Shown: positions 30,008-49,893 of the stretch, piece after piece | How the letters are laid out: each line of letters starts with the position of its first letter | How positions within the stretch are numbered: the first letter of the stretch is position 1 | DNA from: Crocinitomicaceae bacterium | Lineage (GTDB): Bacteria > Bacteroidota > Bacteroidia > Flavobacteriales_D > Crocinitomicaceae | Assembly: GCA_044361115.1 (NCBI GenBank) | Contig: JBIKJH010000001.1 | Location: 228,593 to 292,592, forward strand | DNA: 64,000 bases | Direction: 5' to 3' | The notes under the pieces: generated by a model | Database searches by the model: none | What the model saw: the letters and a program-made list of their open reading frames with translations, nothing else | Told to the model about the DNA's origin: nothing | Made by a program: the position numbers and the translations under genes

Positions 30008-30013
30008 CAAGAA

Positions 30014-32384: not shown

Positions 32385-33257
32385 TTAAAACTTGTACTTT
32401 ATAATTGGATGATTTGATGATAATTTTCTATACACTAATACATTGAAATTATAATACGAATCTTTTCCATCTTTTCCGCGTGTTTCACCCGTGTAATCAA
32501 TGGTTTCATTTAAAGCTGGATTGGCTAAATAAGCCTCATTTGAATTTTGAAATAGATTTGGAGAACAATAGGTTCCGCCAACATCATCAATATAATCAGA
32601 GTAGGTTTTAAAATAAGTAGCTTCAACTCCTATTTGCCAGTACTTATTTACATTATACTTAGCACCAACTCCAAATGGAATGATTAATGTGTTTCGGCGG
32701 TATTTTGTTTTCCCGGGAATTCTACCTTGCCCTTCTGTACCAATGGGTTGAAGTGCCACCCATTTATCATCAACTTTTGCTTTTGGATTGAAAAAAGTGA
32801 CCCCTAAGCCTGAAAAAACATAAACACTTGATAAAAATTTTTTGGACGAAAATTGCTTATACGATTTATGTTTCGGTTGAAATAGACTAATATTCATTCT
32901 ACTTTCCAAACTGACGTAATTTGATCTAAAGTGTAAATTTCTATTTTGTCTAGAGGGCTCTTGTGTAAATTCGTCATTTCCTTTGAATATTCCGTAGGTT
33001 AAAAAAGAAGATGAACAAAACCACCGATTCAATTCAATCAAATATCCTGCTTTTAAATTAAAGGTAGTTGACCTAAAATCTAAATCGCGCAAACTATGCG
33101 CCTGTCCTAATTGATCCGAGCCACCCAAATCGCCAAGAAACTGATTCAAACCGGCACTTACTGCTATTTGTTTGTAGCCAGTGAAGTCATTAAATTGCGC
33201 TGTTAATTGATTTTGACAACACACGATAACGAATAAAATCCAAAAATACTTTTTCAA
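32385..33257 (-). CDS. outer-membrane beta-barrel protein (DUF6089-like)
   Basis: Signal peptide MKKYFWILFVIVCCQNQLTAQ, beta-strand periodicity, and a terminal aromatic residue (..IIKYKF). Confidence 0.65.
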   Translation of the reverse strand: MKKYFWILFVIVCCQNQLTAQFNDFTGYKQIAVSAGLNQFLGDLGGSDQLGQAHSLRDLDFRSTTFNLKAGYLIELNRWFCSSSFLTYGIFKGNDEFTQEPSRQNRNLHFRSNYVSLESRMNISLFQPKHKSYKQFSSKKFLSSVYVFSGLGVTFFNPKAKVDDKWVALQPIGTEGQGRIPGKTKYRRNTLIIPFGVGAKYNVNKYWQIGVEATYFKTYSDYIDDVGGTYCSPNLFQNSNEAYLANPALNETIDYTGETRGKDGKDSYYNFNVLVYRKLSSNHPIIKYKF

Positions 33258-33917: not shown

Positions 33918-35162
33918 TTAATTCATTTCTTCTAGTACCCAAGTACTATTTGTATTCTTTAAATAATAAAGCGAAGGGGTACCTCTGGTAACATATTTTA
34001 AATAGCTATCTTTTTCCTCCGGGTGATAAAAAACTATGCTAGGATATTTATCTTCTTCAATTTGTGTACTTTCGGTTTCACACTTGGTACAAATGGCTAA
34101 CACCTTCTGTGTGGTATTTTTTAGTTGTTCTAATACCTCTTTACACGAACCACAACTGTTAGAATAAAAAAGTAGCACAATTTTATTCTCGTTTGTTTGA
34201 ATGAAGGATTTTATAGGTATTGGAATATCAAAAGGTTGTCCTATTTTAAAATTTTCATGCATTAAAAGTTTGGATTCCCATGCAATTAATTGATTTTCAC
34301 TAGCCTTTTTTAGTTGTAACATTTTTTTTAGAGCTATAACAAAATAAGTATTAGTACTATTATAATCGTAATTAGTATTAATCCAGTTATCTATAAAGAC
34401 TATGCCTTCTTCGGTTTTACCGATGTTAAAAAGTAAACTATCTATAAAACCTTCAAAATGGCTGAGCTCATTTTCATGCACTTTTTTCTGGTCTATCCAC
34501 CATTTATTTAAAACCCTATTCATCAATGGCGTATGAAATAAATAGGATTCATTGGGTGTAAGATTGTTCCAAAATGTACTTAAATAGACACTATTATCTG
34601 AATTTTCTAGATACATTAAATAATTATCCCATTGGGTACTGTTGTTTTTTATACTCTCCTCCAGCTCCTTTAGCTGTTGATTAATGTTTTGACCCAAAGT
34701 ATCTTTAAGGTTAAACAAACCGTAATCTTTGAAAACCAATTGATTATCGATATTAAATTTTAGCTGTTGCTGGAGTAAATTCCATTTAAATTTCGATTGG
34801 TTAAGTACAAACGATTGCGGCGCATTATCAAAAAACACATAATTGTTAGATGGATTCCAAAAAATAGTGTGTGTATTTTCATTACTGTCTATCACTACAT
34901 CTATAAAAGAAGATTCTTGAAGTATATGATCCTTAGCATAATAAATAGAGTAGATGCCCTCCTTAAGGGTTCGAACATCTAATATTGCTTTACCCTCCGT
35001 TACATTGGCTTGACTAAGGGGTTGATTTTTGGTATTGTTTGGGTAATATGAAAACAAATACACATGTCCTTCCTTAAAAGCAGGAGGTAAATACACTGTT
35101 ATTTGAGCCCTTGCAGACACCAAACACACAAAGCATAGCGCTATGTAAATTAACTTTTTCAT
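33918..35162 (-). CDS. secreted thioredoxin-fold protein (CGSC) with an N-terminal domain of unknown function
   Basis: Signal peptide MKKLIYIALCFVCLVSARAQ. The C-terminal region LLFYSNSCGSCKEVLEQL...TPSLYYL is thioredoxin-like. Confidence 0.75.
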   Translation of the reverse strand: MKKLIYIALCFVCLVSARAQITVYLPPAFKEGHVYLFSYYPNNTKNQPLSQANVTEGKAILDVRTLKEGIYSIYYAKDHILQESSFIDVVIDSNENTHTIFWNPSNNYVFFDNAPQSFVLNQSKFKWNLLQQQLKFNIDNQLVFKDYGLFNLKDTLGQNINQQLKELEESIKNNSTQWDNYLMYLENSDNSVYLSTFWNNLTPNESYLFHTPLMNRVLNKWWIDQKKVHENELSHFEGFIDSLLFNIGKTEEGIVFIDNWINTNYDYNSTNTYFVIALKKMLQLKKASENQLIAWESKLLMHENFKIGQPFDIPIPIKSFIQTNENKIVLLFYSNSCGSCKEVLEQLKNTTQKVLAICTKCETESTQIEEDKYPSIVFYHPEEKDSYLKYVTRGTPSLYYLKNTNSTWVLEEMN

Positions 35163-35176
35163 ATTCTGTTTTAGTA

Positions 35177-35218
35177 AACAGCAACACCCCATTTCTTTGT
35201 GAATGGGGTGTTACTGTT
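35177..35218 (-). terminator. intercistronic hairpin (15-bp stem, one mismatch)
   Basis: aacagcaacacccca-tttctttgtgaa-tggggtgttactgtt, between the stop at 35230 and the start at 35162. There is no clear U-tract. Confidence 0.4.
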
Positions 35219-35229
35219 TGTATTTTATA

Positions 35230-36693
35230 TTAAGGGCAGGTATAAGTAATTACAACCCTTCCATCACCACCAGAACCTCCAGTTGAATCATTACAAGCAG
35301 AATTTATTCCCCCTCCAGCTCCTGAGCCACCTGGTTGTGCACCATTACCTCCATTTCCACTTGAAGATGTACCACCAGCCCCTCCTGAAGGACCCGCACC
35401 AGCTACTCCTCCTCTTCCATTGACATTACAAGATGAAAAAGTGCCATTTACACCACTAGCTCCATTAGTATTTACATCTCCTCCTGTAGCCGTAACAGCA
35501 ACACCGCCTCCAAAAGGAGTAGTACCTTCACCGCCACGACCGCCACGTGCAGTTATGGTGTTAGAGGCATAAGTAATAATAGAATTGCCCCCTGCAACTC
35601 CATCCGCTGTAGTTATACCTCCACTACCTCCATTACCTACAGTATAGCTTATGCTAGTATTACCTGATGAAACCGTATAAAGTTTTAGGGTATAAGCACC
35701 ACTACCCCCTGAACCTCCGATTTGATCGGGTGCACAACCCCCGCAAGCGCCACCGCCACCACCGCCAGCGCCATACGCTTCTGCTTGGAATGATACGATA
35801 TCTGTGCCAGGAATTGTAAGAGTGCCTGAACCTGATGAATTGAAGGTTCTCCTGTAGTCATTAACTGTATATAGTTTTCCAACTCTATAATTGGTGCCAG
35901 TTTTTAAAGCATGTATGTAAACATTACCTGTATTTACTCCTGTTAGCAAACCAGTAGATGAGTTAATAGTAGCATTACCGGTATTATTCGATACCCAACT
36001 AGACAAACCTGTTCCTGTAGCAGTTTGTGTACAGGTCGTTAAAATAGTTTTACTTAAGGTAGGCGTTACAGTTACATCTAAGGTATTTGAACAGGTTAAC
36101 CCATTCTTTACAAAAGTAGCAGTTACCACCCCTGTTGATGGCACTGTGCCGCCTAGGGTGTAGGTAATGGTGAGCGAACCACCACCTGGTATTGCAGTAG
36201 TGGTAGAAGGAGATACAGAAGCGATGGTTAAACCCGATGCCCCTGATAATGTTACATCAGATGTAGCAGGTGTAATAGAACCCTCAAACAAAGAATTGTT
36301 TACTAACGTTACTTTAAAAGATTTAGCTCCTAAAATACTTACAGACTCCCCAGGTGCATAAGTACCCAGAAAACCATTGGTGTTAGGATCGCAGTTGGCA
36401 GAAATTGCACTTGGACCACCCCCACTTAGGCAACCCGACCATGCTCCGTTTTCATAACTTTTTGCGCATTTAGACGACATGTCATACACAAACATTCCAT
36501 CTACAGGGTTTGCTATAGCACTGGTATTTGCAACTCTGGGTAATACTAGCCCTTTGTTGGTGCTTTCCAGTTCTAACAGCGAACTGTTGCCGATGGTGGT
36601 AGGGTTGTTACCAATTTTTACTTGGGCAGCAGCCTTTGTTGTAAATAATCCTACTAATAGTAGTAAGAATAGATAACTGTTTGATTTGTTCAT
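35230..36693 (-). CDS. secreted protein with a C-terminal glycine-rich domain (phage-fibre-associated type); distant member of the island N-terminal family
   Basis: Signal peptide, then QVKIGNNPTTIGNSSLLELESTNKGLVLPRV. C-terminal AYGAGGGGGGACGG..GGSGGSGAY..VGNGGSGG..ARGGRGGEG..GGAGG..GGSGGDGRVVITYTCP. Confidence 0.8.
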   Translation of the reverse strand: MNKSNSYLFLLLLVGLFTTKAAAQVKIGNNPTTIGNSSLLELESTNKGLVLPRVANTSAIANPVDGMFVYDMSSKCAKSYENGAWSGCLSGGGPSAISANCDPNTNGFLGTYAPGESVSILGAKSFKVTLVNNSLFEGSITPATSDVTLSGASGLTIASVSPSTTTAIPGGGSLTITYTLGGTVPSTGVVTATFVKNGLTCSNTLDVTVTPTLSKTILTTCTQTATGTGLSSWVSNNTGNATINSSTGLLTGVNTGNVYIHALKTGTNYRVGKLYTVNDYRRTFNSSGSGTLTIPGTDIVSFQAEAYGAGGGGGGACGGCAPDQIGGSGGSGAYTLKLYTVSSGNTSISYTVGNGGSGGITTADGVAGGNSIITYASNTITARGGRGGEGTTPFGGGVAVTATGGDVNTNGASGVNGTFSSCNVNGRGGVAGAGPSGGAGGTSSSGNGGNGAQPGGSGAGGGINSACNDSTGGSGGDGRVVITYTCP

Positions 36694-36726
36694 AATATAT
36701 TATTTATTTTTAGTTTAAGTTTTTTT

Positions 36727-36799
36727 TCTTTGTGTTCTTTGTGTTCTTTGTGTTCTTTGTGTTCTTTGTGTTCATTGTGTTCTTTTTGTCTTTGTAGTG
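36727..36799. repeat. 9-bp tandem repeat (gtgttcttt, about 6-7 units)
   Basis: tctttgtgttctttgtgttctttgtgttctttgtgttctttgtgttcattgtgttcttt... It directly abuts the homology breakpoint of the neighbouring gene fragment. Confidence 0.85.
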
Positions 36800-36845
36800 T
36801 TTTTTATTTACCAAGGAGGCACTGAGGGCCCTGAGATTTTTAGTT

Positions 36846-37033
36846 TTTAGTTCATTTCCTGTTAAGCGAGGAGCCATAATACCATCTGCAATGGTCGTAG
36901 CTCAAGGGTCTCCAACAACCTGAAGCCTTGTATGCGGACTTATCGTTCCTTCGCCAACTTGTGCATGTACTTGTGCGCTGAAAAAGAGTGCACTGAAAAA
37001 GAGAATGTTTGTTTTCATAAAGTTGTATTTCAT
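36846..37033 (-). pseudogene. orphan 5' fragment of a tail-fibre-like paralogue (in-frame stop, truncated)
   Basis: MKYNFMKTNILFFSALFFSAQVHAQVGEGTISPHTRLQVVGDP*ATTIADGIMAPRLTGNELK. There are long identical nucleotide runs with 38684-38800, for example ttcatttcctgttaagcgaggagccataat. Confidence 0.8.
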
Positions 37034-37063
37034 ATATTATTTGGTTTGCTTTTATTTACTAAT

Positions 37064-37101
37064 TCAAAGAAATCGAATCTAAGCTGATTCGATTTCTTTG
37101 A
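37064..37101 (-). terminator. 14-bp perfect hairpin 22 nt after the stop of the 37123 gene
   Basis: caaagaaatcgaat-ctaagctg-attcgatttctttg. There is no U-tract on either strand. Confidence 0.45.
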
Positions 37102-37122
37102 AATGGGATTAAAAAAATGGGT

Positions 37123-38853
37123 TTACTTCTTTGTTAATTTCTCTACCAAGCCCTTCAACTCGTCTAGTTGTTTTTGCTGGTCTTCTAGCTGGACTTGTTG
37201 CTTTTCTATTTGGACTTGTTGATTAACATTCTGAGCTTGCTGTTTTTCTAGTTGTAACAACAATCCCTTTGTAGCACTCAAATTAAGTATGGTAAGACGG
37301 TCATAATCTATATTGCGGAAATCTGACACCTCTTTACCATAGACAAATGCTTCTTTAGTAGTTAACTTAGTGTTGATACTTAGTTGATTGTTAGCTGTAG
37401 CTACAACTTGCGCTGTTTTCTCGGTTTCTACTTTGTTTTCCAACACATAAAACTTAATTACATCACCCACCGCAATATCACTGCTATTAATTCCCATAAA
37501 AACAGTTTGTTCTCCAACGGTTTTTACCTCAGCTTTGCTGTATACATTGGGGATGAATTCTTTGCCTTTTAATACTGCTTCTGGAAATACGGCCTCTACA
37601 TCTTGCGCAAAAACACCTGTTTTGATGCCATCACCTTTTGTTTTTGTATCTTTATAACTGTATTTTAAGATGTTTAATTTAGCAACGGTGTTTAACGACG
37701 CCATATGATCTACTGTTCCTTGTTTTACTTTAATACGTGCATCCGAATAGGCTCTAAATTCATGACCTGTTGCAATCAGACCTGTAGCGTAGATACTCGC
37801 AGGTGTATTAACCGATGAAGCTGTTCCATTGCCTACATTGTTTAAGTATCCATAGTTACCAGACATGTTACTTCCACCTACTCCATTTACGTGAAGCTTT
37901 GCAATAACAGTAGTTGTATTTATACCCACATTTCCTGCGGTAGTAATCATTAATCGAGGTTGCCCAACTGATTCATCCGCAATAGCAAAGGAACCAACAA
38001 AATCTGGTCTTGAAGCCACAGACCACGTTCTATTTGTGCCTACACTTTCTAAATACAAGGCACTTGAAGCATAATTGCCACTTGTACCTTTTATGTGTAA
38101 CCTTGATAAAGGCGTAGTTATACCCATTCCAATATAACCGTCGTCTGTAATTCTCATCCTCTCTACAGCGACAGAACCAGCTGGAGATGAACCAAAGGCT
38201 AAATGATGATTATGGTTTATAGAACCTGTATGGATACCTTCGATATATGCACCTCTTCCAGATCCTGAACCCATTAGAATTCTTGAACTGTGACTTACAC
38301 CTGTCCCACCAGTGGAATTATTGCCTATGACCAATCCTGGAAATATATTTGATACAGAAGAACCTCTGATCTCCAAACTTAGGTTTGGAGTATTGGTACC
38401 AATTCCAACTCTGTCGTTCGTTCCATCAATAAACAAGGTGTTGTTATCAAAATTTAGGTTATCGGTTACACCTACGGTTCTTCCCGCTCCGACTGTTCCG
38501 TTGGTGGTGTATAGGTTTTCCATTGCTGTTCCAGGTACCAATTTTTGCCAAACCGTTCCATCGAAATAGTAGTAACCCACCGATAAAACATTCGCTGTTT
38601 TGGTGGTTGGACCTGTAACGGCAGATGTTATGTAGACCATGGCACCGATTTCATCCGTTCCGTAAACTGCATCCTTCGCTTTTAGTTCATTTCCTGTTAA
38701 GCGAGGAGCCATAATGCCATCTGCAATGGTCGTAATTCCGGGGTCTCCAACAACCTGAAGCGTTGTCTGCGGACTTGTCGTTCCTACGCCAACTTGACTT
38801 TGCGCGTATTGGTTTACGGATATTAGTGCAGCGATAATAAAAATTTGTTTCAT
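37123..38853 (-). CDS. tail-fibre-like secreted protein with a C-terminal S74 intramolecular-chaperone domain (P1)
   Basis: The ATG at 38853 gives the signal peptide MKQIFIIAALISVNQYAQSQ. Repeated G.VGIGT..P...L.V.G motifs are present. Also SDARIK...GVFAQDVEAVFPEAV (endosialidase-chaperone signature) and a terminal coiled coil. Confidence 0.85.
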   Translation of the reverse strand: MKQIFIIAALISVNQYAQSQVGVGTTSPQTTLQVVGDPGITTIADGIMAPRLTGNELKAKDAVYGTDEIGAMVYITSAVTGPTTKTANVLSVGYYYFDGTVWQKLVPGTAMENLYTTNGTVGAGRTVGVTDNLNFDNNTLFIDGTNDRVGIGTNTPNLSLEIRGSSVSNIFPGLVIGNNSTGGTGVSHSSRILMGSGSGRGAYIEGIHTGSINHNHHLAFGSSPAGSVAVERMRITDDGYIGMGITTPLSRLHIKGTSGNYASSALYLESVGTNRTWSVASRPDFVGSFAIADESVGQPRLMITTAGNVGINTTTVIAKLHVNGVGGSNMSGNYGYLNNVGNGTASSVNTPASIYATGLIATGHEFRAYSDARIKVKQGTVDHMASLNTVAKLNILKYSYKDTKTKGDGIKTGVFAQDVEAVFPEAVLKGKEFIPNVYSKAEVKTVGEQTVFMGINSSDIAVGDVIKFYVLENKVETEKTAQVVATANNQLSINTKLTTKEAFVYGKEVSDFRNIDYDRLTILNLSATKGLLLQLEKQQAQNVNQQVQIEKQQVQLEDQQKQLDELKGLVEKLTKK

Positions 38854-38958
38854 GAAAAATTGAAATAGAGTGAATAAATGGACCACGTTGTTTAATCGTT
38901 ATTTGCTTAACCAATTCAAATAATGCGTGAAATTAGCTGGGTCTGCCTTAGGGGGGTA

Positions 38959-38974
38959 TACCTACTACTAGGTT
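38959..38974. promoter_or_regulatory. island 7-2-7 palindrome upstream of P1
   Basis: TACCTAC-TA-CTAGGTT, ~105 nt upstream of the ATG at 38853. Confidence 0.5.
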
Positions 38975-39338
38975 ATTTCACTAATTGGTTGAATAACTTT
39001 CAATTGCACCTAAATCTCTGCAGCGACAAACAAGCTGATTTGAGTCAATGAATGAATGGATTGATTCTTTCCTGTAAAAATAACGCTAACGAAGTTTAGT
39101 TGATTGTATATTATTTGGATGGTTGTGTACGTGCTGACAAACTTCTTCCGCGATACATTGTATCACTCCGATTCTTTATTCACCAGTGTTTCCAATTGCT
39201 TTTTGAAAAAGTTGGATTTGTTAAATAAGTCTCAATATTCGGGATTTTAAAATAGTTGGGGTTATCCATTTCCCATTTAATTAAAAAAATTAATTTTATG
39301 CCCTTAAATATTGATTATGAATAACATTACTACCATAA

Positions 39339-39370
39339 TACCTAATATTGGGTATACCTACCAATGGGAT
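39339..39370. promoter_or_regulatory. two abutting island palindromes upstream of the sensor kinase
   Basis: TACCTAA-TA-TTGGGTA, immediately followed by TACCTAC-CA-ATGGGAT. The second ends 35 nt before the ATG at 39405. Confidence 0.55.
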
Positions 39371-39404
39371 AATCGCATTAGTTTTGGTCTTAAATAAAAA
39401 TAAA

Positions 39405-41369
39405 ATGACCGCTCACGTTAAATTTAGAATGCTGCTTTTTACCCTTGCTCTAGCGTTCAGCCACACCACTTTTGCATTGCAAAATCCGTTTTTTAAAAAC
39501 ATTCCACAATTAACGGATCCCGAAGTTTATTTGAAACAAATTAAACACTTTGCCGAAACAGATGATTGTTTGATTCATACCAAGCATTTTATGAAAATTT
39601 ATGCGCGTAATGGGTTAAAACTTTTACCTCAGCATATTAATGAACTCCGCGCAATTAATAAATTATTAATTAGCAAATCGACTGAATATAGGGGCTATGC
39701 TATTTATTCGAATGCCTTATGTTTTTTCTCTGAAGGCAACTATCAGCAGGCTTTAACCATTTTAAATAAGGAACTAGTTAAACTTGGTAAAAAAGGAAAT
39801 CCAGAGCTTAAGTTTTATTTAGTAGGGTTGAAAGCATCGTGTTATTACTTTCTTGGAGACTTTGACCAATCAACTAAATTTTACTTGAAGGCCTTAAAAA
39901 CGTATAAGGTGGAGTATGATCGAAAGTATACCATTTATCAAAACATTGGATCTAATTTTTATGCTCTACGTTTGTCGGATAAAGCGCTTGAATACTATTT
40001 AAAAGCAGATGAACATTATAAGCATAAAAAAAATGATATACTGATGTTTATCACTTGGATCTATACAGATTTTCAGGATTTTAAAAATGCGGATAAGTAT
40101 GCTGGCTATTTAATAGCGAATCAATCAATGATGACGGATTTTGAATTAACAGCACTATACGAAACACTGGCTAAAATTGAACATATTAAACAAAATAACG
40201 TGAAAGCTTTAGAGCTGATGGATCAATCAATAGCTATCCTAAAAAATAACAATGTTTCTACTTTCGATTTGATAAATATAGATTATATATTAATCTCAAA
40301 GTTGGCTATTAAAGGTGAAATTTTAATGGATTTAAAGAAGTATAGCGCAGCCTTAGATGTTTTTAATGAAGGTTTGGCAATTGCTAAAAAAACCAATAGG
40401 ACAATAAGTGAAATTGAAATTTATCAAAATCTATACAATGTATCCAAATTATTAGGTCAAAATGACAAGGCTCTTTTTTATTTAGAGCGTTTTAATAAAT
40501 TAGAAGACGATCTACATAAAAAAGAACTTAAAAGTGAAATTGTCAAGCTTGAACGGGTGTACAATTTTGAAAAGAAAAATACGGATATAAAAATTCTGCA
40601 AAATGATAAAAAAATCAAGCAAATTGAAATTCAAAAATCCAAGCAGTATATACTTTTGTTAACTATCACAATCTTACTTGTTTCAATTGGTTTGTTCACA
40701 CTTTTCAAATTGAATATTGATAGCAAGAAAAAAAATGCGCTGAAGATAGATTTACTAGTAAAGAATACAGAATTACAGTTAGTGAAATCACAATTGATGG
40801 GACAAGAAATTGAAAAATCGCGCATTTCACAAGAATTACATGATGGGGTGGCAAATAATCTTTTATCCTTGATATATGCGAATGAAAATACGCTAAAAGA
40901 ACCTTTACGGGCAATTTATAACGAAATACGCATTATTTCCCATAACTTATCGACTGTTGCAATTCGGAACAATAGTTCATTAAAGGAAATAGTGCTGGAA
41001 CTATTTTATCGTATTTTTGACGAACAAGAAGTGACGCTTGACTTGATATGGGATAAAAAAAATGAAACATTTATGTGTGAAGAAGAGGTTAATTTAGTGC
41101 TTTATCGTGTTTTTCAAGAGTTGTTTATCAACATTGTAAAGCATGCTGAAGCAACCTCTGTGATTATTGAATTTCAAAAAGATGCACATGAGTTTACAAT
41201 CGTTATTGCAGATGATGGAAAGGGTCCTGATAAAAAAACGCAAGGAATTGGACTTAGCAATATTGAGGATCGAATTAAAACGATAACTGGTCGTTTTAGT
41301 ATTCTTTTTAACACCCAATACAAGCAAAAGACAATGGGTGCTGTTTCAAGTATTGTTATTCCTATTTAA
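39405..41369 (+). CDS. TPR-containing sensor histidine kinase (HisKA_3 / HATPase_c)
   Basis: Signal/TM segment, TPR-like helical repeats, TM helix ILLLTITILLVSIGLFTLF, H-box SRISQELHDGVANNL, and ATPase motifs ADDGKG..GIGLSNIEDR. Confidence 0.88.
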   Translation: MTAHVKFRMLLFTLALAFSHTTFALQNPFFKNIPQLTDPEVYLKQIKHFAETDDCLIHTKHFMKIYARNGLKLLPQHINELRAINKLLISKSTEYRGYAIYSNALCFFSEGNYQQALTILNKELVKLGKKGNPELKFYLVGLKASCYYFLGDFDQSTKFYLKALKTYKVEYDRKYTIYQNIGSNFYALRLSDKALEYYLKADEHYKHKKNDILMFITWIYTDFQDFKNADKYAGYLIANQSMMTDFELTALYETLAKIEHIKQNNVKALELMDQSIAILKNNNVSTFDLINIDYILISKLAIKGEILMDLKKYSAALDVFNEGLAIAKKTNRTISEIEIYQNLYNVSKLLGQNDKALFYLERFNKLEDDLHKKELKSEIVKLERVYNFEKKNTDIKILQNDKKIKQIEIQKSKQYILLLTITILLVSIGLFTLFKLNIDSKKKNALKIDLLVKNTELQLVKSQLMGQEIEKSRISQELHDGVANNLLSLIYANENTLKEPLRAIYNEIRIISHNLSTVAIRNNSSLKEIVLELFYRIFDEQEVTLDLIWDKKNETFMCEEEVNLVLYRVFQELFINIVKHAEATSVIIEFQKDAHEFTIVIADDGKGPDKKTQGIGLSNIEDRIKTITGRFSILFNTQYKQKTMGAVSSIVIPI

Positions 41370-41380
41370 TACTACAAGTG

Positions 41381-42049
41381 ATGTTAGATATACTTCTCGT
41401 AGATGATCATAAATTATTCCTCGAAGGAATCAAGGGTATTTTAATTCAAAATCCAAAAGTAAATAGCGTTACTATGTTGACCGAACCCAAAAAAGTATTG
41501 CCTTTTTTGATTTCGCATAAAACGGATGTTTTGTTTACCGACTTAAATATGCCTGATTTCGACGGAATTGACTTAATACAAAAAGTAAGAAATGAACATC
41601 CTAAAGTAAAAATTTGTGTTCTGACAATGTATTATAACTTTAATCTGTTGGCCTCACTAAAAAAGCACCATGTTGATGCTTATTTACATAAAAGTATGGA
41701 GGTTTCAGAGTTTGACGATGCACTGGAAGCCATTAACAGAAATGAACGTTATTATTCCTATGAACCTGCAAAAGTTAATCAAGCGTACGATCTTATTGTA
41801 AACAAGGAAAAAGAAGGCGAAAACATTAAAGACGATTTTATCCGAAAACACATGCTTTCACCACGCGAATTTGAGGTATTGAAATTAATTGTTGAAAATT
41901 ATTCCACAAAAGAAATTGCTGAGAAACTCTTCTTATCCGAACTAACAATATCAACGTATAGGAAATACATCATTAAAAAAACGGGATGTAAAACGGCCGT
42001 TGAATTGTATAAATATGCACTTGATGCCGGAATAATGAAACACGATTAG
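41381..42049 (+). CDS. NarL/FixJ (LuxR-type HTH) response regulator
   Basis: REC domain ILLVDDHKLF...DLNMPDFDG. C-terminal GerE HTH LSPREFEVLKLIVENYSTKEIAEKLFLSELTISTYRKYI. Confidence 0.9.
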   Translation: MLDILLVDDHKLFLEGIKGILIQNPKVNSVTMLTEPKKVLPFLISHKTDVLFTDLNMPDFDGIDLIQKVRNEHPKVKICVLTMYYNFNLLASLKKHHVDAYLHKSMEVSEFDDALEAINRNERYYSYEPAKVNQAYDLIVNKEKEGENIKDDFIRKHMLSPREFEVLKLIVENYSTKEIAEKLFLSELTISTYRKYIIKKTGCKTAVELYKYALDAGIMKHD

Positions 42050-42449
42050 CGTTTCAATCATTCGATTTCGCTATTTTTTTATTTAGATTTTCGACACAAA
42101 CAATGCCTGTAATTCTATTATAAGTAACATGTTAATTCTCCCTACTGGGATTGATATTTCTTCATACCTATCCTCTTGTTGACCAAGCAAAAAGTCATTT
42201 ACGCGAGTGCTACTATGACATACAAATTCAATCTTTATTCAATAATGCCATAAGGGTTAGTAAAATAAAATCTAAATCTATTGCGCTTTTTGCGTCGTTT
42301 GAACATGCAACTCAATATCTTTCAACAAGGCTTATTCACCGGAGCAAAATTCCGATAAAAGAAAAACCCAACAGTGAGAACTTACGTCTTACTGTTGAGT
42401 CTATCAATTGAAAAGAACAATTGTTCCTTGAATTCAGTTTAGTTGTCGG

Positions 42450-42558
42450 TTAAATGCAGCGTCTTTTCTGGTTTGTTGTACCTATTCCTACCTGTGCATG
42501 CCCCAATTCAGCGCAAATAATTATTAGAAGTGCTACTGAATTTTCCTTAAGCCGTCAC
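42450..42558 (-). pseudogene. orphan 5' fragment of a tail-fibre-like paralogue
   Basis: The reverse strand reads (V)TALKENSVALLIIICAELGHAQVGIGTTNQKRRCI*. Compare the P2 N-terminus ..LVCVGLANAQVGIGTTNPQTT. It lies directly 3' of P2. Confidence 0.6.
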
Positions 42559-42595
42559 AAAATTCAAATCAATCAACATTCGATTTAAAGGAGTT

Positions 42596-44119
42596 TTACT
42601 TTTGCTTCTCTTTCTTTAAATCTTCAATTTCTTTTCTCAAAGTCTCTATTTGAACTTGTTGATCCTGAATTGCCTTAACCAAAAGAGGTGTCAATTTTCC
42701 ATAATCAACCCCCCATGGGTTTTTAGTTTCATCTTCTCCACCCGCAGAAACTGCGTTAGGATAAATACCGTGGAGTTGTTGTGCCAAAAATCCAGTTTGT
42801 GGGTCTTCATGGTTTTTATCTGTTTTATAATAATAATCAGCCACTTTTATTTTCATCAAGTCATTAATACCATAAGCTGTTTCTTTGATGTTTTCTTTTA
42901 AACGAATATCAGAGGTTGTAGTGTAATTAACACCACCAAAAGCGATTGGATTAATTCTGCCTATAACTGAACCTCCTGCACTTTTAAACGAAATCAATTG
43001 ATTTGTAACACCATTAGTTGTTGAAGTAGTTTGAATACTCACAACTCCATCTAAATTTGTACCATTCCCAATTACATCCAAATCAGCGTTAGGAACGATA
43101 ACACCAATTCCGATATGTCCTTTTTCGTCCATTCTAAGTCCACTGATAGTTCCGGCTGATGACCATGGTGCAATAACTAATCCGTTAGTACTATTAGAAG
43201 CGTTATTATTGTCTGTACTAAAAATTATTCGTGCATCTCCAGCTTGCACAATGTCATTAAATGCGTTAACGGTAGATGATTTGGGTTCGAAAGATAGAAA
43301 TGAACCATTATTAGTTAAGCGCATTGCCGTGTTACCACTTGTAGTGATATCATCATTGGTAACTGATAATTTAAACAAGGGATTTGTTGTCCCAATACCC
43401 ACATTCCCATTGGCCAATATTCTCATTTTCTCTGTAGGTGCCGCACCAGAGCTTGTGGCAAATGCTAAATCATGATCATTATTTATAACGCCTGTATGGA
43501 TACCTTCTACATATGCACCTCGTGCTGCTCCAGAACCTAATATAATCCTTGCGCTATGACTTGTACCTCCAGTTGCACTCGTATTTCGTAATAATAAACC
43601 CGAAAAAACATTCGACCCATTGCTAGAGCCACTTATTTCCAAACTATTAGCGGGTGCTGTTGTACCGATACCAACTCTATTATTTGTGGCATCAATTACA
43701 AATGTACCAGCATCGAAATTCACAACATCGTCTACACCGACTGTTCTTCCTGTGCCAATCGTTCCATTTGTAGTATAGATATTTTCTTGTGCTGTACCAT
43801 TGACTAATTTTTGCCAAACGGTACCATCAAAATAAAAGTAGCCCGGTGATGTTACATTGATTGTTTTTGCAGATGCAGTTCCTACGGAAGCAGTAACATA
43901 AACAATGGCTCCGATTTCGTTTGAACTATACACAGCATCTTTCGCTTTCAGTTCATTTCCTGTTAAACGAGGAGCCATAACACCATCAGCTATTGTCGCA
44001 ACTCCAGGGTCCCCAACAACTTGTAACGTTGTCTGCGGATTTGTCGTTCCTATTCCTACCTGTGCATTCGCCAATCCGACACAAACTAAGGTAATTAATG
44101 TTGCTAGATTTTTTTTCAT
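42596..44119 (-). CDS. tail-fibre-like secreted protein with a C-terminal S74 intramolecular-chaperone domain (P2)
   Basis: N-terminal ~150 aa are near-collinear with P1 (TTLQVVGDPG, MAPRLTGNELKAKDAVY, FDGTVWQKLV, YTTNGT). Also SDIRLKENI...GFLAQQLHGIYPNAV and a terminal coiled coil. Confidence 0.85.
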   Translation of the reverse strand: MKKNLATLITLVCVGLANAQVGIGTTNPQTTLQVVGDPGVATIADGVMAPRLTGNELKAKDAVYSSNEIGAIVYVTASVGTASAKTINVTSPGYFYFDGTVWQKLVNGTAQENIYTTNGTIGTGRTVGVDDVVNFDAGTFVIDATNNRVGIGTTAPANSLEISGSSNGSNVFSGLLLRNTSATGGTSHSARIILGSGAARGAYVEGIHTGVINNDHDLAFATSSGAAPTEKMRILANGNVGIGTTNPLFKLSVTNDDITTSGNTAMRLTNNGSFLSFEPKSSTVNAFNDIVQAGDARIIFSTDNNNASNSTNGLVIAPWSSAGTISGLRMDEKGHIGIGVIVPNADLDVIGNGTNLDGVVSIQTTSTTNGVTNQLISFKSAGGSVIGRINPIAFGGVNYTTTSDIRLKENIKETAYGINDLMKIKVADYYYKTDKNHEDPQTGFLAQQLHGIYPNAVSAGGEDETKNPWGVDYGKLTPLLVKAIQDQQVQIETLRKEIEDLKKEKQK

Positions 44120-44160
44120 CCTATAAAATTTAAATTATCAACTAACGGTTGAGTCGTGTT

Positions 44161-45627
44161 TTACTCTATTTTCGAAATTTTGAAAGATTCAGAATGATTG
44201 TCATCAAATACGACGAGGTAATACAAGCCATTTGCGAATTCACTCATATCAATTGTTGTTTGAAATTGATCTTCCTGCAAGCTTATTTTTTCGATTGTTT
44301 GGCCATTTCCGTTGATTATTTGATAGCTAGAAATTGGGAATTCATTTGAAGCAAGGTTGAGTGCGTTGATTACTGGATTTGGAAAAACCTGAAAGACGTG
44401 TTCCTGGGCATCATCAATGCTGACTGAACGAATAGCTGAAAAGGTAAAATTTCCATCAAAATCTGTTTGTTTCAAGCGGTAATAACTTAAACCAGAATAC
44501 GGATCGATATCCTCACTTTCGTAGGCTCTTGTTCCTTGTGAAAAGCCAGCTCCATCAATCGTTGACACGAAATCCCAATCTTCACCATTTTGGGTGCGCT
44601 CTATGGTGAAATAGTCGTTGTTGATTTCGGAATACGTTTTCCATGTTAAATCCACTTTTCTTAACGCTTTATTGTAGACTGCATCGAAGTTCAACAGGGT
44701 AATTGGCAATGGATTGGCAGAGGTTGAGCTCGCTAAGGTAAAAGGGCTGAACGAAGTTACAGCGCTAGTTGTTTCAATTGTACCAGCAGTAGTATTTCCT
44801 GATGTTCCGCCATTGCCTAGATCCAACCACGTAGTTCCATCCCACTTTGCCACACGAAGGTCGTTAATGGCAGTTACACCACACGATGTATTTGAATCCC
44901 AAGATAAGTGCACCTTCACATTGGAAGAACCGTTGGTTCGATTCAACATCCAGTATTCACAACTCGAAATATGATCTAAAGTAAGGTCAAGTGAATTGTC
45001 GGCATAGGTTGGACCTGGATCTGCGTGGATATACGAACATTCAAACCGGTCTGTCGAATTGCTGGGTGCAGTTATAGAAACTTCTCGTACATACGTCCCA
45101 TCACCAACAGGAAATGTAAATGCCGTATTTCCAATTTTAGCAACCGTACCAACGATATGAGAATCATTGGAAGAATTGAAATGGGCTGCTGTATTGCGAA
45201 AAACCAGCTGATTATTGCCTGTTACAATATTTCCATTAACAAACGTAATTTCTTTAGAAACTTGTAAATCATTATTCGAAATCGGTGAAATTCCACTTGA
45301 AATGTTATTCATTTCAATATCGGAATAAAGCGAAAAAAAGCAATCGATTAGAATTCCGTTCGCATCGATTGTTTGTGTGTTTGTACCACGGAATTCGATT
45401 TCTCCATCTCCCGTCACACTTGAATTTGAATTGAACGAAATATTATCCGATTCAATGCGTAAAACACCATCATTATCCAACACACCTTGTTGATTAGTTA
45501 GTATATCAGTTTCTCCTATTGTTACAGTTGCGTTTGGCCCAATATACATGTCTGTGCCTAAGAAGAATTGCCCATTCGAAATGAATGTCATAAGCACAAG
45601 GCTTATAGTACTAAGTAACTTTTTCAT
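44161..45627 (-). CDS. secreted protein with a T9SS C-terminal sorting domain
   Basis: Signal peptide MKKLLSTISLVLMTFISNGQ. C-terminal VFPNPVINALNLAS...NGLYYLVVFDDNHSESFKISKIE. Confidence 0.8.
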   Translation of the reverse strand: MKKLLSTISLVLMTFISNGQFFLGTDMYIGPNATVTIGETDILTNQQGVLDNDGVLRIESDNISFNSNSSVTGDGEIEFRGTNTQTIDANGILIDCFFSLYSDIEMNNISSGISPISNNDLQVSKEITFVNGNIVTGNNQLVFRNTAAHFNSSNDSHIVGTVAKIGNTAFTFPVGDGTYVREVSITAPSNSTDRFECSYIHADPGPTYADNSLDLTLDHISSCEYWMLNRTNGSSNVKVHLSWDSNTSCGVTAINDLRVAKWDGTTWLDLGNGGTSGNTTAGTIETTSAVTSFSPFTLASSTSANPLPITLLNFDAVYNKALRKVDLTWKTYSEINNDYFTIERTQNGEDWDFVSTIDGAGFSQGTRAYESEDIDPYSGLSYYRLKQTDFDGNFTFSAIRSVSIDDAQEHVFQVFPNPVINALNLASNEFPISSYQIINGNGQTIEKISLQEDQFQTTIDMSEFANGLYYLVVFDDNHSESFKISKIE

Positions 45628-45655
45628 AATTGTTTTGATTTTAGATTAATAAGGC

Positions 45656-46819
45656 TTAATTCCCTAGATAAATAAAAGTGTTTACACTTAAGCTCTTTGG
45701 TGTAATGTCTAATGCGGTACCACTGCCTCCCAAAGGAACATTATGGGTATGACCTGGTAATGCACTGCCTGAAAAGGTGTGCGTATGATTTGGTTCTGCA
45801 TCTGTCGAAACTAAATTTCCAGATGCACCGTCCGAAAAAACACCAGGGGTTGGTCCACCTGTTACACCTGTCCTATACCTAATAAAAGCACTCAAATTAT
45901 GCGAATGCGCACCGCCGCCGCCGATAGTACCGCTTGGGGTACCTGCAGTAACTGAAGCTGCTGTTAAATTTATATTGGGTAAATTGGCTTGCGTGATTGT
46001 TTTACTGTTTGATCCACTTACACTTCCCAGCGCTGTTCCATTTTGAATTAAACAAGAGTTTGTTGCATCAGGCAAGTTTGTAACAATACCAAGCGCCGTA
46101 GCTCGGATTTGCTGATCTGCAGAAAGTGTAGACTTTACTCTACCGTCTAGCTTGACCCATCCGCCATGATCGACAGTTTGGATACCCGTTTTAATATCAC
46201 CATAGGTCATATTGGGAACATTTACCCAGTTTGGTGCACTTCCAGCACCGTTACTTACCAAGACCTGACCAGCAGTGCCAGCGGTATTATTTGGCATCAA
46301 TGCTCCCGAGAATTTAACATTTCCAGTAAGATCTAATTTTTCTGTTGGTGTAGATGTGCCGATACCAATTCGGTTATTTGTTCCATCAAGAAATAAGGTT
46401 CCGGCATCGAAATTCACGGTATTTGTTACATTGACCGTTCTTCCACTTCCAATTGTTCCGTTAGTCGTATAAATATTGTCAGTACTAGAACCTGTAACGA
46501 TTCGTTGCCAAACACTGCCATCGTAATAAAAATAGCCTGTCGAATTCACGTTCGTTGTTTTCGCAGAGGCAGAAGTAACTGCAGCAGAAACATAAACGAT
46601 TGTTCCCCTGTGATCTGACCCGTAAACAGCATCTTTCGCTTTCAGTTCGTTTCCTGTCAATGTGGGTGCAATCATTCCATCGGCGATTGTACTGTTTGTA
46701 GGCGCTCCTTTTACGTCTAAGGTTGTTGCTGGAGATGTTGTGCCAATCCCTACTTGTGAGAAGGCATTAAATTGTACACTGATTACTAGTGCTGCAATTG
46801 GTAAAAATTTTTTAAACAT
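45656..46819 (-). CDS. secreted protein with the shared N-terminal module and a phage tail-collar (MdpB-like) C-terminal domain (P3)
   Basis: N-terminal QVGIGTTSPATTL..LTGNELKAKDAVYGS..NIYTTNGTIGSGRTV..DGTNNRIGIGT. C-terminal GDIKTG...GWVKLDGR...LPD...HSH..HTHTF..GHTHNV...LSVNTFIYLGN. Confidence 0.8.
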   Translation of the reverse strand: MFKKFLPIAALVISVQFNAFSQVGIGTTSPATTLDVKGAPTNSTIADGMIAPTLTGNELKAKDAVYGSDHRGTIVYVSAAVTSASAKTTNVNSTGYFYYDGSVWQRIVTGSSTDNIYTTNGTIGSGRTVNVTNTVNFDAGTLFLDGTNNRIGIGTSTPTEKLDLTGNVKFSGALMPNNTAGTAGQVLVSNGAGSAPNWVNVPNMTYGDIKTGIQTVDHGGWVKLDGRVKSTLSADQQIRATALGIVTNLPDATNSCLIQNGTALGSVSGSNSKTITQANLPNINLTAASVTAGTPSGTIGGGGAHSHNLSAFIRYRTGVTGGPTPGVFSDGASGNLVSTDAEPNHTHTFSGSALPGHTHNVPLGGSGTALDITPKSLSVNTFIYLGN

Positions 46820-46910: not shown

Positions 46911-46926
46911 TACCTACTGCTAGGTA
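46911..46926. promoter_or_regulatory. island 7-2-7 palindrome upstream of the P3-P5-P2 operon
   Basis: TACCTAC-TG-CTAGGTA, ~95 nt upstream of the ATG at 46819. It is near-perfectly symmetric. Confidence 0.55.
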
Positions 46927-47790: not shown

Positions 47791-49893
47791 ATGAAGTTAA
47801 GTTGGTTTACGTTTGTCTTTTTATTAATTGGTCATCAACTCTATTGTCAAGAAAATTATACAATTTGGGTAACAAGTAAAAGTGATAATTTAGCGTCCAA
47901 TCGCCCAAAAGAATTCGATCATTATTCTTTGATAAAACTATCGAAAGCATTTCCATCCTCGAAAATGGCAAACTTGCAAAAGGTTTATGAACTTGAATTT
48001 TCAACGAATGCTCAGGCCCTTATTGATTCAATAAATAGTGGCGTTTACACCGATTTATATTATGCTGTTCAAGCGCCCGAACTAGCGCCGCTGTTTGTGC
48101 CCAATGATTATGCCTTGGTTAGTGGACCAAATTATGCGCTGGGATTGATAAATGCGTCGAGTGCTTGGGAGCTGACCCATGGTGACAGTTTAATTCGCAT
48201 TGGTATTTTGGATACTAATTATGATCTAAATCATGAGGATTTGCAAACTAAAATTGCTTTTATCGAACCTACGAACACCAATTCACAAACAGTTCATGGA
48301 ACGGCCGTTGCGATAACAGCTGCGGGAGGAACAAATAACAATGTTGGTATCAGTTCAATTGGTTTTAACACAAAAGTTGAATTGCGGTCAATGAATTATA
48401 ATCAGATTTTGGAGGCTTCGTATTCAGGCGCCAAGGTAATTAATTTAAGTTGGGCTTCTGGATGTGCATATAATCAATATTGCCAGGATATAATTGATGA
48501 GGCCTATTTCAATGGATCAATAATTGTTGCTGCGGCAGGAAACGGAAGCACATGTGGAGGAGCAACAAACTATGTTTATCCAGCAAGTTTTAATCATGTT
48601 TTTTCAGTAAGTAGTATTGGACCTTTGAATAATCATGAGCGAACCATCGGAATTCCGAGTACAACACATCAACACAATGATAGTGTAGATCTTTGTGCTC
48701 CTGGGTATGATGTATTATTGTCTACTGCAAACGGTGTTTACTTAACTGGGAATGGAACTTCCTTTGCGGCACCATTTGTATCTGGTACAATTGCGCTTAT
48801 GCTCGCGGTTAATCCATGTTTAAATTTTGAGCAAATCGATGAGATTTTTAAATTATCCTCTTTTGATTTGGATACCATTAATCCGAGTTATTCTGGCCTT
48901 TTGGGTCATGGCCGGTTGGATGCAGGTTTAGCTGTTTCGTTGGCGGCCAATTATTCAACCATTCCCTTTAACTACCACGAATCATTTAGTTGTTCAGATT
49001 CAAGCTATACTGTACTAATTGACAATGTAGGAGCTTCAAATTACGACGTTGTTTGGGAGGATGGAACTATTGGTAATACTTTAACAGCGGTTTCTGAAGG
49101 TTCACTAGTACGGGGGGAAATAATATCAACAGAAGGCTGCTTCTCAACATTCGAACTAAGTTTAGATTCAATTGCGCCCTTGGAAATTATAACTGAAAAA
49201 ACGGATGTTACGTGCTTTGGTCAAAACAGCGCTAGTATTTCTGCTGAACTGAACTCATCAGATATTGCCTATAGCTGGAGTAACGGAGAAACTGGATTAC
49301 ACTTGAATAATTTATATGCTGGAAACTATACTTTAACCGTTTACCGATATGAGGATTGTATCGATAGTATAGAATTTACAATTACACAACCTGAAGAAAT
49401 TGTAATTGACATTGCTATTGAACAAACTAGCCTAGCGGGTCCCATTACACTTCATTCAATTATCAATGGCGGTGTACCTGACTATACGTACAGCTGGAAT
49501 ACGGGTGAAACGGACAGCCTACTTCAAGGCGTTTTAGGAGGATTTTATGAACTTGAAGTGACTGATTTTAAGGGTTGTACAGATAGCAAAAATATATACG
49601 TCCCAGCTCATACATTTAACGTCCTGAATAGCCCAAATGCGAACAATTACGCTCTTATAGAGAATACTGTTGTAAATAACGAGTTGTATTATTATGACAA
49701 ACGCTTGTATTTCAGTTCACTTGACATAGAAGCGTATTCTTTGTACAATTCAATTGGTCAAAAAGTGCAAATCAACGTTGAGAAAAACGATAATTTCTTC
49801 GATTTATCTGGTCTAGTCAGTGGTAACTATTTCGTTTTTATATTCTTAAAGAATGGAAAGCAAATTTCAATGCCAATTCTTGTTTACGAATAA
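47791..49893 (+). CDS. S8 subtilisin-family peptidase with SprB repeats and a T9SS C-terminal domain
   Basis: Catalytic triad contexts GILDTN, HGTAVA and GTSFAAPFVSG. SprB-type repeats (TCFGQNSASI..YSWSNGETG..AGNYTLTV). A CTD at the end. Confidence 0.88.
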   Translation: MKLSWFTFVFLLIGHQLYCQENYTIWVTSKSDNLASNRPKEFDHYSLIKLSKAFPSSKMANLQKVYELEFSTNAQALIDSINSGVYTDLYYAVQAPELAPLFVPNDYALVSGPNYALGLINASSAWELTHGDSLIRIGILDTNYDLNHEDLQTKIAFIEPTNTNSQTVHGTAVAITAAGGTNNNVGISSIGFNTKVELRSMNYNQILEASYSGAKVINLSWASGCAYNQYCQDIIDEAYFNGSIIVAAAGNGSTCGGATNYVYPASFNHVFSVSSIGPLNNHERTIGIPSTTHQHNDSVDLCAPGYDVLLSTANGVYLTGNGTSFAAPFVSGTIALMLAVNPCLNFEQIDEIFKLSSFDLDTINPSYSGLLGHGRLDAGLAVSLAANYSTIPFNYHESFSCSDSSYTVLIDNVGASNYDVVWEDGTIGNTLTAVSEGSLVRGEIISTEGCFSTFELSLDSIAPLEIITEKTDVTCFGQNSASISAELNSSDIAYSWSNGETGLHLNNLYAGNYTLTVYRYEDCIDSIEFTITQPEEIVIDIAIEQTSLAGPITLHSIINGGVPDYTYSWNTGETDSLLQGVLGGFYELEVTDFKGCTDSKNIYVPAHTFNVLNSPNANNYALIENTVVNNELYYYDKRLYFSSLDIEAYSLYNSIGQKVQINVEKNDNFFDLSGLVSGNYFVFIFLKNGKQISMPILVYE

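Follow-up and report, generated by a model that had tools for sequence, protein, structure and literature searches.

Four fibre-like proteins with Sec signal peptides and phage tail-fibre-type tips encoded at one chromosomal locus of a Crocinitomicaceae bacterium

The mosaic adhesive trimer (MAT) fibres of Bdellovibrio bacteriovorus have been demonstrated by experiment to be trimers of the surface or the vesicle that undergo S74 self-cleavage (Caulton et al., 2024; PMC10769870). This prey-binding family is the closest known, and also the closest studied, analogue of the four genes described here, P1 to P4, which lie in a 64,000-nucleotide stretch of DNA from a Crocinitomicaceae bacterium (GenBank assembly GCA_044361115.1, contig JBIKJH010000001.1, positions 228,593 to 292,592 of the forward strand; the whole stretch is referred to below as the window, and positions are counted from its first letter). 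We consider it likely that P1–P4 are chromosomal, Sec-exported fibres built from phage tail-fibre parts, most probably trimeric and self-cleaving through S74 in P1 and P2, with ligand-binding tips and a repertoire generated by duplication, decay, and recombination.

MAT fibres and P1–P4 are both non-phage chromosomal paralogue families in which a signal peptide is followed directly by a conserved N-domain (beta-rich in MAT), a beta-helical shaft with NVGIGT..P-type units, and a tip that is either an S74 domain with an SDxxxK motif or an unrelated domain, the tips having been exchanged in evolution. Unlike the MAT fibres, P1–P4 belong to another phylum, show no evidence of a predatory lifestyle, are shorter (387–576 amino acids [aa] versus ~1,000 aa; Bd2133 has 1,031 and Bd1334 1,151), carry an N-terminal module of a type that can recur internally, and are paired with a cargo gene of the type IX secretion system (T9SS) and a NarL-type two-component system. 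The second point of comparison is provided by phage tail fibres and endosialidase-type spikes (e.g., 6F45), which share with P1 and P2 the S74 domain, its Ser/Lys motif, a C-terminal helix, and a shaft of the kind found in tail-fibre PHROGs. P1 and P2 differ from them in having Sec signal peptides and a cellular N-module, and in the absence of neighbouring virion genes.

Four intact, co-directional fibre-like genes occupy the minus strand between 33.7 and 46.9 kb in the order P3, P2, P1, and P4. Their open reading frames (ORFs) had been reported in an earlier note on this DNA, and all four were recovered at the same coordinates and on the minus strand:

45656..46819, minus strand: P3, 387 aa; signal peptide, PTL_trimer module, shaft unit, linker, and tip with HxH motifs
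42596..44119, minus strand: P2, 507 aa; signal peptide, PTL_trimer module, shaft with GIGT..P...L.V repeats, S74 chaperone, and heptad-like C-terminal tail
37123..38853, minus strand: P1, 576 aa from the ATG (alternative GTG start at 38886); signal peptide, PTL_trimer module, shaft, S74 chaperone with an inserted segment, and Gln-rich C-terminal helix
35230..36693, minus strand: P4, 487 aa with 10 cysteines; signal peptide, divergent PTL_trimer module, weak Ig-like stretch, and Gly-rich domain

P1–P3 are homologous over their first ~175–200 residues. Pairwise alignment gave 45% identity over 472 aa between P1 and P2 (E 1e-105), 55% over 201 aa between P1 and P3 (E 3e-64), and 55.5% over 200 aa between P2 and P3 (E 4e-63). 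The shared N-terminus, described in the earlier note as a signal peptide plus ~150 aa, comprises a signal peptide plus ~175 aa at 55–66% identity, and the identical runs cited there were all found in the alignment of P1–P3. Each of the four proteins begins with a typical signal peptidase I signal peptide, as called by eye from the sequence and the Q-rule (PMC5837995) rather than by a predictor. The predicted mature N-terminus is Gln in four of four cases (QVG[IV]GTT in P1–P3 and QVKIGNN in P4), as expected of Sec/signal peptidase I substrates in Bacteroidetes (PMC5837995, PMC10653852).

The signal peptide is followed by a module that the precomputed annotation assigns to PF26696 ("PTL_trimer") in P1, P2, P3, and P4; unmarked precomputed matches to this family, which is known here by accession and short name only, correspond to E≤1e-5. 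In P3 and P4, the module occupies the following positions:

46496..46756, minus strand: PTL_trimer module of P3 (module A, aa 22–108), the source of profile A3; AlphaFold2 (AF2) core at aa 45–105 with a predicted local distance difference test (pLDDT) score of 92–97
36424..36624, minus strand: PTL_trimer module of P4 (aa 24–90), supported by the precomputed PF26696 match and by hhalign

The P4 N-terminus had no BLAST match to P1–P3, and as a single sequence it did not match the module profile significantly. Comparison of a P4-type with a P1–P3-type profile aligned the whole module (hhalign 96.5%, E 8e-10), which bears out the earlier proposal that P4 carries a distant copy of the same element.

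The module defines a large cellular family. Searching 1.84 billion cluster representatives (clusters at 50% identity) with the module profile yielded 12,699 matches at E≤1e-3, a tier that probably includes proteins with the generic GIGT motif alone, 3,121 at E≤1e-10, and 226 at E≤1e-30. Among GTDB species representatives, a five-sequence module alignment found 270 relatives, from Chryseobacterium, Epilithonimonas, Riemerella, Flavobacterium, Chitinophagaceae, Dysgonomonas, Belliella, and others; identity peaked at 56–61%, indicating that the source species is not among these representatives. By tblastn, module A was absent from 50,697 phage genomes, in which only the short NRVGIGTT.P shaft unit found matches, in cyanophage fibre proteins. 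Against the PDB, the module profile recovered the generic GIGT motif only. The module was already catalogued as PF26696, and we found no study of PF26696/PTL_trimer in the literature, nor anything pertinent on S74 or "tail fiber domain-containing" proteins of Bacteroidetes; the T9SS pairing and the palindrome described below are leads first found here.

The position and partners of the module were surveyed in 118 ORFs from 78 genome loci, where it begins at residue ~18–23, directly after the signal peptide; two to four module genes stand in tandem at 28 of these loci. Among 142 top representatives, the first copy starts no more than 45 residues from the protein start in 129 of 138, and 63 of the 142 contain two or more full copies, in a sample that is biased to multi-copy proteins because scores add up. 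Many of the longer members among proteins P0130–P0274 (e.g., P0130, P0131, and P0132) carry the module two to four times, and P0132 repeats its second half (GD.VYV....T.NV..PGYYYYD...W) about six times. A Pfam census of the C-termini of 112 member proteins identified Fibrinogen_C in 10, S74, an ice-binding-like beta-roll, DUF5907, and COLFI in two each, and YadA head, B-lectin, C-type lectin, C1q, and TNF in one each. The recognised partners are thus mostly of fibre, oligomeric-head, or carbohydrate-binding types, with most of the 112 proteins having no recognised C-terminal domain. Together, the locus and this Bacteroidota census support the central proposal of the earlier note, namely that one conserved N-terminal module is joined to differing phage-fibre-type C-termini outside any phage.

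That nearly all members carry the module immediately behind the signal peptide, in front of many different C-terminal domains, would also be expected if the shared N-terminus were a mere generic export or retention tag on unrelated proteins. We regard this as very improbable, because the module is a domain of ~85 aa with a pLDDT above 92, starts with a GIGT..P...L.V unit like that of the fibre shaft, occurs in two to four internal copies in the multi-copy representatives, and has Pfam-recognised partners mostly of fibre, oligomeric-head, and lectin types. The module is a folded structural element specific to a cellular family, and more than an export tag.

The C-terminal parts of P1 and P2 end in the same type of tip, which contains an intact SDxxxK motif (definition of the S74 Ser-Lys motif after PMC10769870), as the earlier note had it:

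37570..37746, minus strand: Peptidase_S74 domain of P1, with predicted cleavage serine S370 (SDARIK; codon 37744..37746)
42749..42913, minus strand: Peptidase_S74 domain of P2 (Pfam aa 403–457), with predicted cleavage serine S403 (SDIRLK; codon 42911..42913)

Both domains exceeded the Pfam cut-off of 22 bits (P1, 46.3 bits, E 5e-12; P2, 43.2 bits, E 5e-11). The S74 region of P2 aligned with SSDRRIK, the cleavage region of the T4-like long tail fibre chaperone 6F45. Upstream of S74 lies the shaft; P1 and P2 match phage tail-fibre PHROGs, and the P2 shaft matched the structure of the Bdellovibrio fibre Bd2133 (8OND; E 1.3e-4). From the families involved and the MAT precedent, we infer that the S74 domain of P1 and P2 acts as an intramolecular chaperone that would drive trimer folding and then cleave itself off at S370 or S403. 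Since S74 is common to P1 and P2, the locus has three tip types rather than the four that had been counted.

In P3, sliding identity showed that homology to P1 and P2 stops after a single shaft unit, beyond which the protein has a different tip:

46295..46495, minus strand: shaft unit B of P3 (aa 109–175), ending in NRIGIGT..P...L.L.G; matches phrog_1417, phrog_5906, and cyanophage fibres
45659..46219, minus strand: tip C of P3 (aa 201–387); proximal half conserved, distal half variable and with three HxH motifs

The HxH motifs are located at aa 305, 345, and 357 and resemble those of HxH metal-binding fibre tips of the T4 gp12/gp37 type (PF03335); they are probably ligands for metal ions on the trimer axis. 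The tip pattern GD.K.G....HGGW..LDGR...L....Q...A..LG....LPDA......NG parallels the motif of Collar (PF07484). Of the tail-collar/MdpB-like tip with a histidine cluster that had been proposed for P3, the HxH cluster of three motifs stands, whereas Collar gave no Pfam match at E≤0.1 (cut-off 24 bits). Unlike Collar/MdpB members, the P3 tip has neither a match to the Collar hidden Markov model nor a sequence or fold match in the PDB. None of 20 homologues of the tip matched Collar at E≤10 in Pfam, and eight of the 20 matched the HxH Phage_fiber repeat weakly. Searches of PDB sequences with P3 and with its tip profile returned no meaningful match. Foldseek comparison of the P3 model with the PDB gave nothing below E 5, the tip of a Bizionia phage fibre (6OV6) appearing at E 6, and comparison with BFVD gave weak matches only, which were enriched in collar, MdpB, and S74 proteins. 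When the tip was modelled on its own, AF2 returned a pLDDT of 53.

A relative of the P3 tip is found in a phage. Over its full length the tip aligned with the C-terminal part of a protein from Aeromonas phage avDM12-TAAL (hhalign 99.1%, E 5e-19), which keeps LPDMRDRVPVG and itself has a sub-threshold Collar match (13.6 bits, E 0.07). From these comparisons, the P3 tip appears to be an HxH-containing domain, remotely Collar-like, with a homologue at the C-terminus of a T4-like phage protein. The phage protein (L082, 18594..20471) belongs to a T4-like phage, is annotated as hypothetical, and consists of three CBM_5_12 repeats of the chitin-binding type followed by the P3-like tip, a combination that suggests an unannotated receptor-binding fibre.

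P4 ends in the third type of tip, a Gly-rich domain that confirmed the expectation from its glycine-rich sequence:

35242..35823, minus strand: Gly-rich domain of P4 (aa 291–484), Gly_rich_2 (PF21722)

This domain scored 29.3 bits against a Pfam cut-off of 24.3, and aa 179–483 of P4 matched phrog_863 (E 6e-21). The earlier observation was largely right, one of its four domain calls, the Collar assignment of P3, being so only remotely. With regard to cysteine content, P4 has 10 cysteines, P1 none, and P2 and P3 one each, and P4 adjoins an exported protein resembling thioredoxin or AhpC. Exported proteins of this kind occur near fibre genes or the T9SS partner described below at 33918..35192 and 21637..23103 of the window, and at 7876..9446 and 5645..7057 of the loci L083 and L084, respectively. 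The cysteines of P4 may possibly be linked to disulphide formation.

In addition to the intact genes, we identified three truncated copies, which were absent from the earlier note, and a tandem repeat:

42465..42551, minus strand: psi2, 3' of P2; decayed signal peptide followed by AQVGIGTTN (tblastn E 1e-4)
36836..37033, minus strand: psi1, a pseudogene of the N-module that has a Met and a signal peptide of its own and contains an in-frame stop; homology ends at LTGNELK
36726..36795, no strand: 9-nt tandem repeat TTCTTTGTG, 7.9 copies, at the point where psi1 is truncated and just upstream of P4
33772..33912, minus strand: psi3, a P4-like 5' end without a start codon

At the protein level, psi1 is 65% identical to aa 4–61 of P1 and psi3 is 67% identical to aa 2–44 of P4; the corresponding nucleotide identities are 91%, to P1 at 38675–38796 (repeat D3), and 81% (repeat D4). 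The two ORF fragments of psi1 also appear among the gene calls from further samples of this species. All three copies hold the constant 5' end and not the tips, which identifies them as decay products rather than silent cassettes; they record duplication and loss. Among the paralogues, the module is 55–85% identical in nucleotide sequence, with longest exact matches of 13–23 nt, from which we conclude that the paralogues are old and have undergone no recent gene conversion.

Comparison of P3 with its relatives in closely related metagenomic lineages revealed mosaicism. P0002 corresponds to P3 with an extra shaft unit of 123 aa. P0003 and P0004 are 97% identical to P3 over aa 1–175, 85–90% over aa 176–275, and 20–23% over aa 276–365. 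The distal, HxH-bearing half of the tip is replaced in P0003–P0007, with the last 22 residues remaining similar.

Several paralogues and N-terminal fragments within 13 kb, tip mosaics between strains, and the general enrichment of "tail fiber domain-containing protein" annotations near programmed inversions (PMC9881135) are features that a system switching its tip within a clone would present, be it by a shufflon, invertible cassettes, a diversity-generating retroelement (DGR), or gene-conversion donors. Against such programmed variation, no invertase, integrase, other recombinase, or reverse transcriptase/DGR gene was found in the window (39 largest ORFs scanned), and no long inverted repeats either, only hairpins of 18–30 nt or chance pairs; the copies are all co-directional, no exact match between paralogues is longer than 23 nt, and the fragments represent the constant end rather than the variable one. 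We therefore give this explanation very little credence. The cassette swapping proposed in the earlier note holds as an evolutionary process between strains, as seen in the P3 relatives, and is not supported as an active mechanism, for which recombinase, repeats, and recent conversion are all lacking.

The kinship of the shaft, S74, and Gly-rich parts with phage tail-fibre families, the occurrence of the P3 tip in a T4-like phage, and the three truncated copies also raise the question of whether P1–P4 are leftover prophage or tailocin tail-fibre genes decaying in the chromosome. A tRNA gene, a further point in favour of this origin, lies at some distance from the locus:

29935..30008: tRNA-Lys(TTT), the sole tRNA gene noted in the window, ~3.8 kb from psi3 and ~5.2 kb from P4

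No integrase or phage gene stands beside this tRNA gene, however, and a scan of the 39 largest ORFs upheld the claim that phage structural genes are absent from the window: capsid, terminase, tail, baseplate, and integrase genes are all missing from the 64 kb, which represent ordinary chromosome with genes for a helicase, glycosyltransferases, peptidases, panB, RimK, and an OmpA-family protein. Moreover, P1–P4 all have Sec signal peptides, which virion fibres lack, their N-module is found in none of the phage genomes searched and in thousands of cellular proteins, and their intact ORFs are conserved across metagenome samples. A prophage remnant is hence extremely improbable.

Taken as chromosomal fibres, P1–P4 would be produced in the following manner. 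Export by Sec and cleavage by signal peptidase I would leave an N-terminal Gln, and the mature chain would open with the PTL_trimer module (PF26696, ~85 aa), followed by a short shaft of GIGT..P...L.V-type units of the sort common to phage fibres and Bd2133. At the tip, S74 would chaperone trimer folding and then cleave itself in P1 and P2, while the phage-type tips of P3 and P4 would fold without S74. By way of their tips, the fibres would attach to ligands, probably glycans or features on the surface of other cells or particles. Diversity in the set would arise over evolutionary time and from strain to strain, and not in a programmed manner, by gene duplication, decay, and the occasional recombinational replacement of shaft units and tips. 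What the analysis demonstrates directly is the layout and homology of the proteins, the spread of the family, its mosaicism, the gene pairing, and the motif enrichment described below. Trimer formation, autoproteolysis, a location on the surface, ligand binding, and the regulation considered below are in each case suggested by the families involved and by the precedent of the Bdellovibrio MAT fibres.

Several points weigh against this picture of surface fibres. The likeness to MAT fibres lies in layout, shaft, and tips, and membership in that family, whose N-domain of ~130 aa is not represented in the PDB, is not claimed. The literature contained no experimental data that we could find for any member of the PTL_trimer family. 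Of the earlier idea of a "shaft base", the part that stands is that a conserved module opens the mature chain; given its internal recurrence in 63 of the 142 representatives, it is not strictly a cell-proximal base. The AF2 model of the full-length P3 monomer is confident only at aa 45–105 and 210–250, and the Collar assignment of P3 falls below the Pfam threshold, so that membership is not established. Finally, no T9SS sorting domain (PF18962/TIGR04183) was found in P1–P4, and no lipobox either; proteins lacking both could be periplasmic or released.

The last point leads to the reading that P1–P4 are soluble or vesicle-borne secreted lectins or antagonistic proteins, i.e., released trimers with an opsonin-like, aggregating, or bacteriocin-like role. 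This would account for the lack of a membrane anchor, lipobox, and sorting domain in all four, and it would accord with the C1q, TNF, fibrinogen, and lectin heads of other family members, which are elsewhere typical of soluble pattern-recognition proteins, and with the deposition of some Bdellovibrio MAT proteins in a vesicle (PMC10769870). We judge it unlikely: Pfam, NCBIfam, and PADLOC scans detected no toxin or enzyme domain in P1–P4, and the exit of a Sec-only protein from a diderm cell is equally unexplained on this account. PADLOC also reported no defence-system match.

The gap in the outer-membrane route of P1–P4 makes a gene between P3 and P2 the most interesting lead:

44161..45627, minus strand: T9SS type-A cargo protein, 488 aa, with Por_Secre_tail and TIGR04183 matches

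Gaps of 28 bp and 41 bp separate this partner gene from P3, which precedes it, and from P2, which follows it. Its product had no match to characterised proteins and belongs to a family of more than 2,295 members, whose nearest named ones are from Fluviicola, Cryomorphaceae, and Marivirga. In six of seven sampled homologues (38–44% identity, on readable contigs), a PTL_trimer gene lies 12–65 bp from the partner:

L083, downstream of the partner: P2-like fibre with S74 and SDQRLK
L085 and L086, downstream of the partner: ~470-aa proteins with a P4-type module
L087, L088, and L089, upstream of the partner: PTL_trimer proteins of 266–469 aa

The same partner-fibre pairing occurs at three Chitinophagaceae loci (L007, L009, and L011). 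Seen from the fibre side, the partner is present at only three of the 78 loci. Set against the variety of adjoining tips, this low frequency indicates a coupling that is lineage-restricted, yet independent of tip type.

A two-component system encoded between P1 and P2, in the same order in contigs of the same species, and a recurrent palindromic motif, TACCTAnnnnTAGGTA, provide a second lead:

39348..41369, plus strand: TPR sensor histidine kinase (Pfam)
41378..42049, plus strand: NarL/LuxR-type regulator, Response_reg+GerE (Pfam)
33315, 33352, 38959, 39339, 46911, 47548, 47732, 49475, 51201, and 51463: start positions of the 16-nt TACCTAnnnnTAGGTA sites
46911..46926, no strand: perfect palindrome TACCTACTGCTAGGTA, one of the ten TACCTAnnnnTAGGTA sites, 100 bp upstream of P3

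With up to two mismatches allowed, TACCTAnnnnTAGGTA occurs at 10 sites, against 1.09 ± 0.87 expected, and none of 100 shuffles reached 10. All ten sites fall within 33.3–51.5 kb. Seven of them lie 2–114 bp upstream of the starts of P1, P3, the kinase gene, the S8 peptidase gene (47791), the gene at 50204..51136, and an outer membrane protein gene at 32385..33257 (two sites); the site of the kinase gene abuts its listed TTG start. The remaining three comprise two intergenic sites, 236 and 334 bp upstream, and one within the S8 gene. In the locus L083, from another species, three perfect copies (3844, 7750, and 8934) lie 126–157 bp upstream of the orthologous partner-fibre pair and of two T9SS-sorted redoxin genes, and the other ~0.9 Mb of loci, with contigs of the same species excluded, contain no copy.

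The 7-2-7 layout of TACCTAnnnnTAGGTA presumably resembles that of NarL-family sites. The motif is a candidate operator for the regulator encoded at 41378..42049 and may mark a putative local regulon, in which case the fibre genes would probably be expressed under the control of the local TPR sensor kinase and this regulator via TACCTAnnnnTAGGTA. A scan for sigma-70 promoters was not informative (45 found versus 54 expected).

The pairing with a T9SS cargo gene admits the explanation of a two-part surface fibre, in which the protein at 44161..45627 is exported and covalently anchored at the surface, and the module of P3 and P2 docks on it or is carried out with it, so that the partner would serve as anchor for fibres acting as exchangeable heads. 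It would supply what the fibres, having no sorting signal of their own, lack, and the arguments for it are the short intergenic distances to P3 and P2, the recurrence of the pairing in six of seven homologues, up- or downstream and with tips that are S74, P4-like, or small proteins, its presence at the three Chitinophagaceae loci, and the TACCTAnnnnTAGGTA motif that precedes the pair both here and in L083. The frequency of three in 78 module loci nevertheless excludes a general display route; P1 and P4 lack a gene of this kind beside them, the partner matches nothing characterised, and adjacency demonstrates co-inheritance or co-regulation, not contact. We also know of no established piggy-back export via the T9SS, which counts against this explanation. 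On balance, we consider it unlikely for P1–P4, and continue to favour chromosomal, Sec-exported fibres.

A bolder form of the idea, which we offer as speculation with a low chance of being correct, is that PTL_trimer fibres and the adjacent T9SS protein would form a two-part surface organelle of Bacteroidota, with a T9SS-exported, anchored base and interchangeable, phage-derived trimeric heads (fibres matured by S74, HxH tips, and, in other species, C1q, TNF, fibrinogen, or lectin heads), that is here switched on by the TPR kinase and the NarL-type regulator via TACCTAnnnnTAGGTA. If true, it would constitute a new surface-display route for proteins without a T9SS signal and give bacteria an equivalent of recognition molecules of the collectin or ficolin kind.

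With respect to the surroundings of the fibre genes, the locus is flanked by genes for an S8 subtilase (47791..49893), with two copies of the palindromic motif upstream, and an M43 metallopeptidase (31186..32265), which has a T9SS sorting domain. At other loci, different regulators were observed: a membrane-anchored protein with TPR and an AraC-type helix-turn-helix (HTH) is encoded near fibre genes at 31 of the 78 loci, mostly of Chryseobacterium and relatives (e.g., L003, 10110..11864; such loci are from Weeksellaceae, within L003–L080). Two small HTH proteins (18–19 loci) and an HU-DNA_bdg+DUF4469 protein (11 loci) are likewise recurrent near fibre genes.

The present locus is a compact test case, as it combines two S74 fibres whose cleavage serines are clear, an HxH tip with strain-level replacements, a T9SS partner, and a candidate regulator with a candidate operator. 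If our reading of P1–P4 is right, they represent a very large, experimentally untouched family of Bacteroidota, with at least ~3,000 clusters at 50% identity (E≤1e-10; some of these proteins probably have the generic fibre repeat alone), for which the MAT fibres of the predator Bdellovibrio are the only analogous system studied. Its members would be secreted trimeric fibres assembled out of the receptor-binding parts of phages and headed by, among others, C1q, TNF, fibrinogen-like, and lectin domains. In soil, in freshwater, and in communities associated with hosts, such fibres would be obvious candidates for recognising cells, particles, or glycans.

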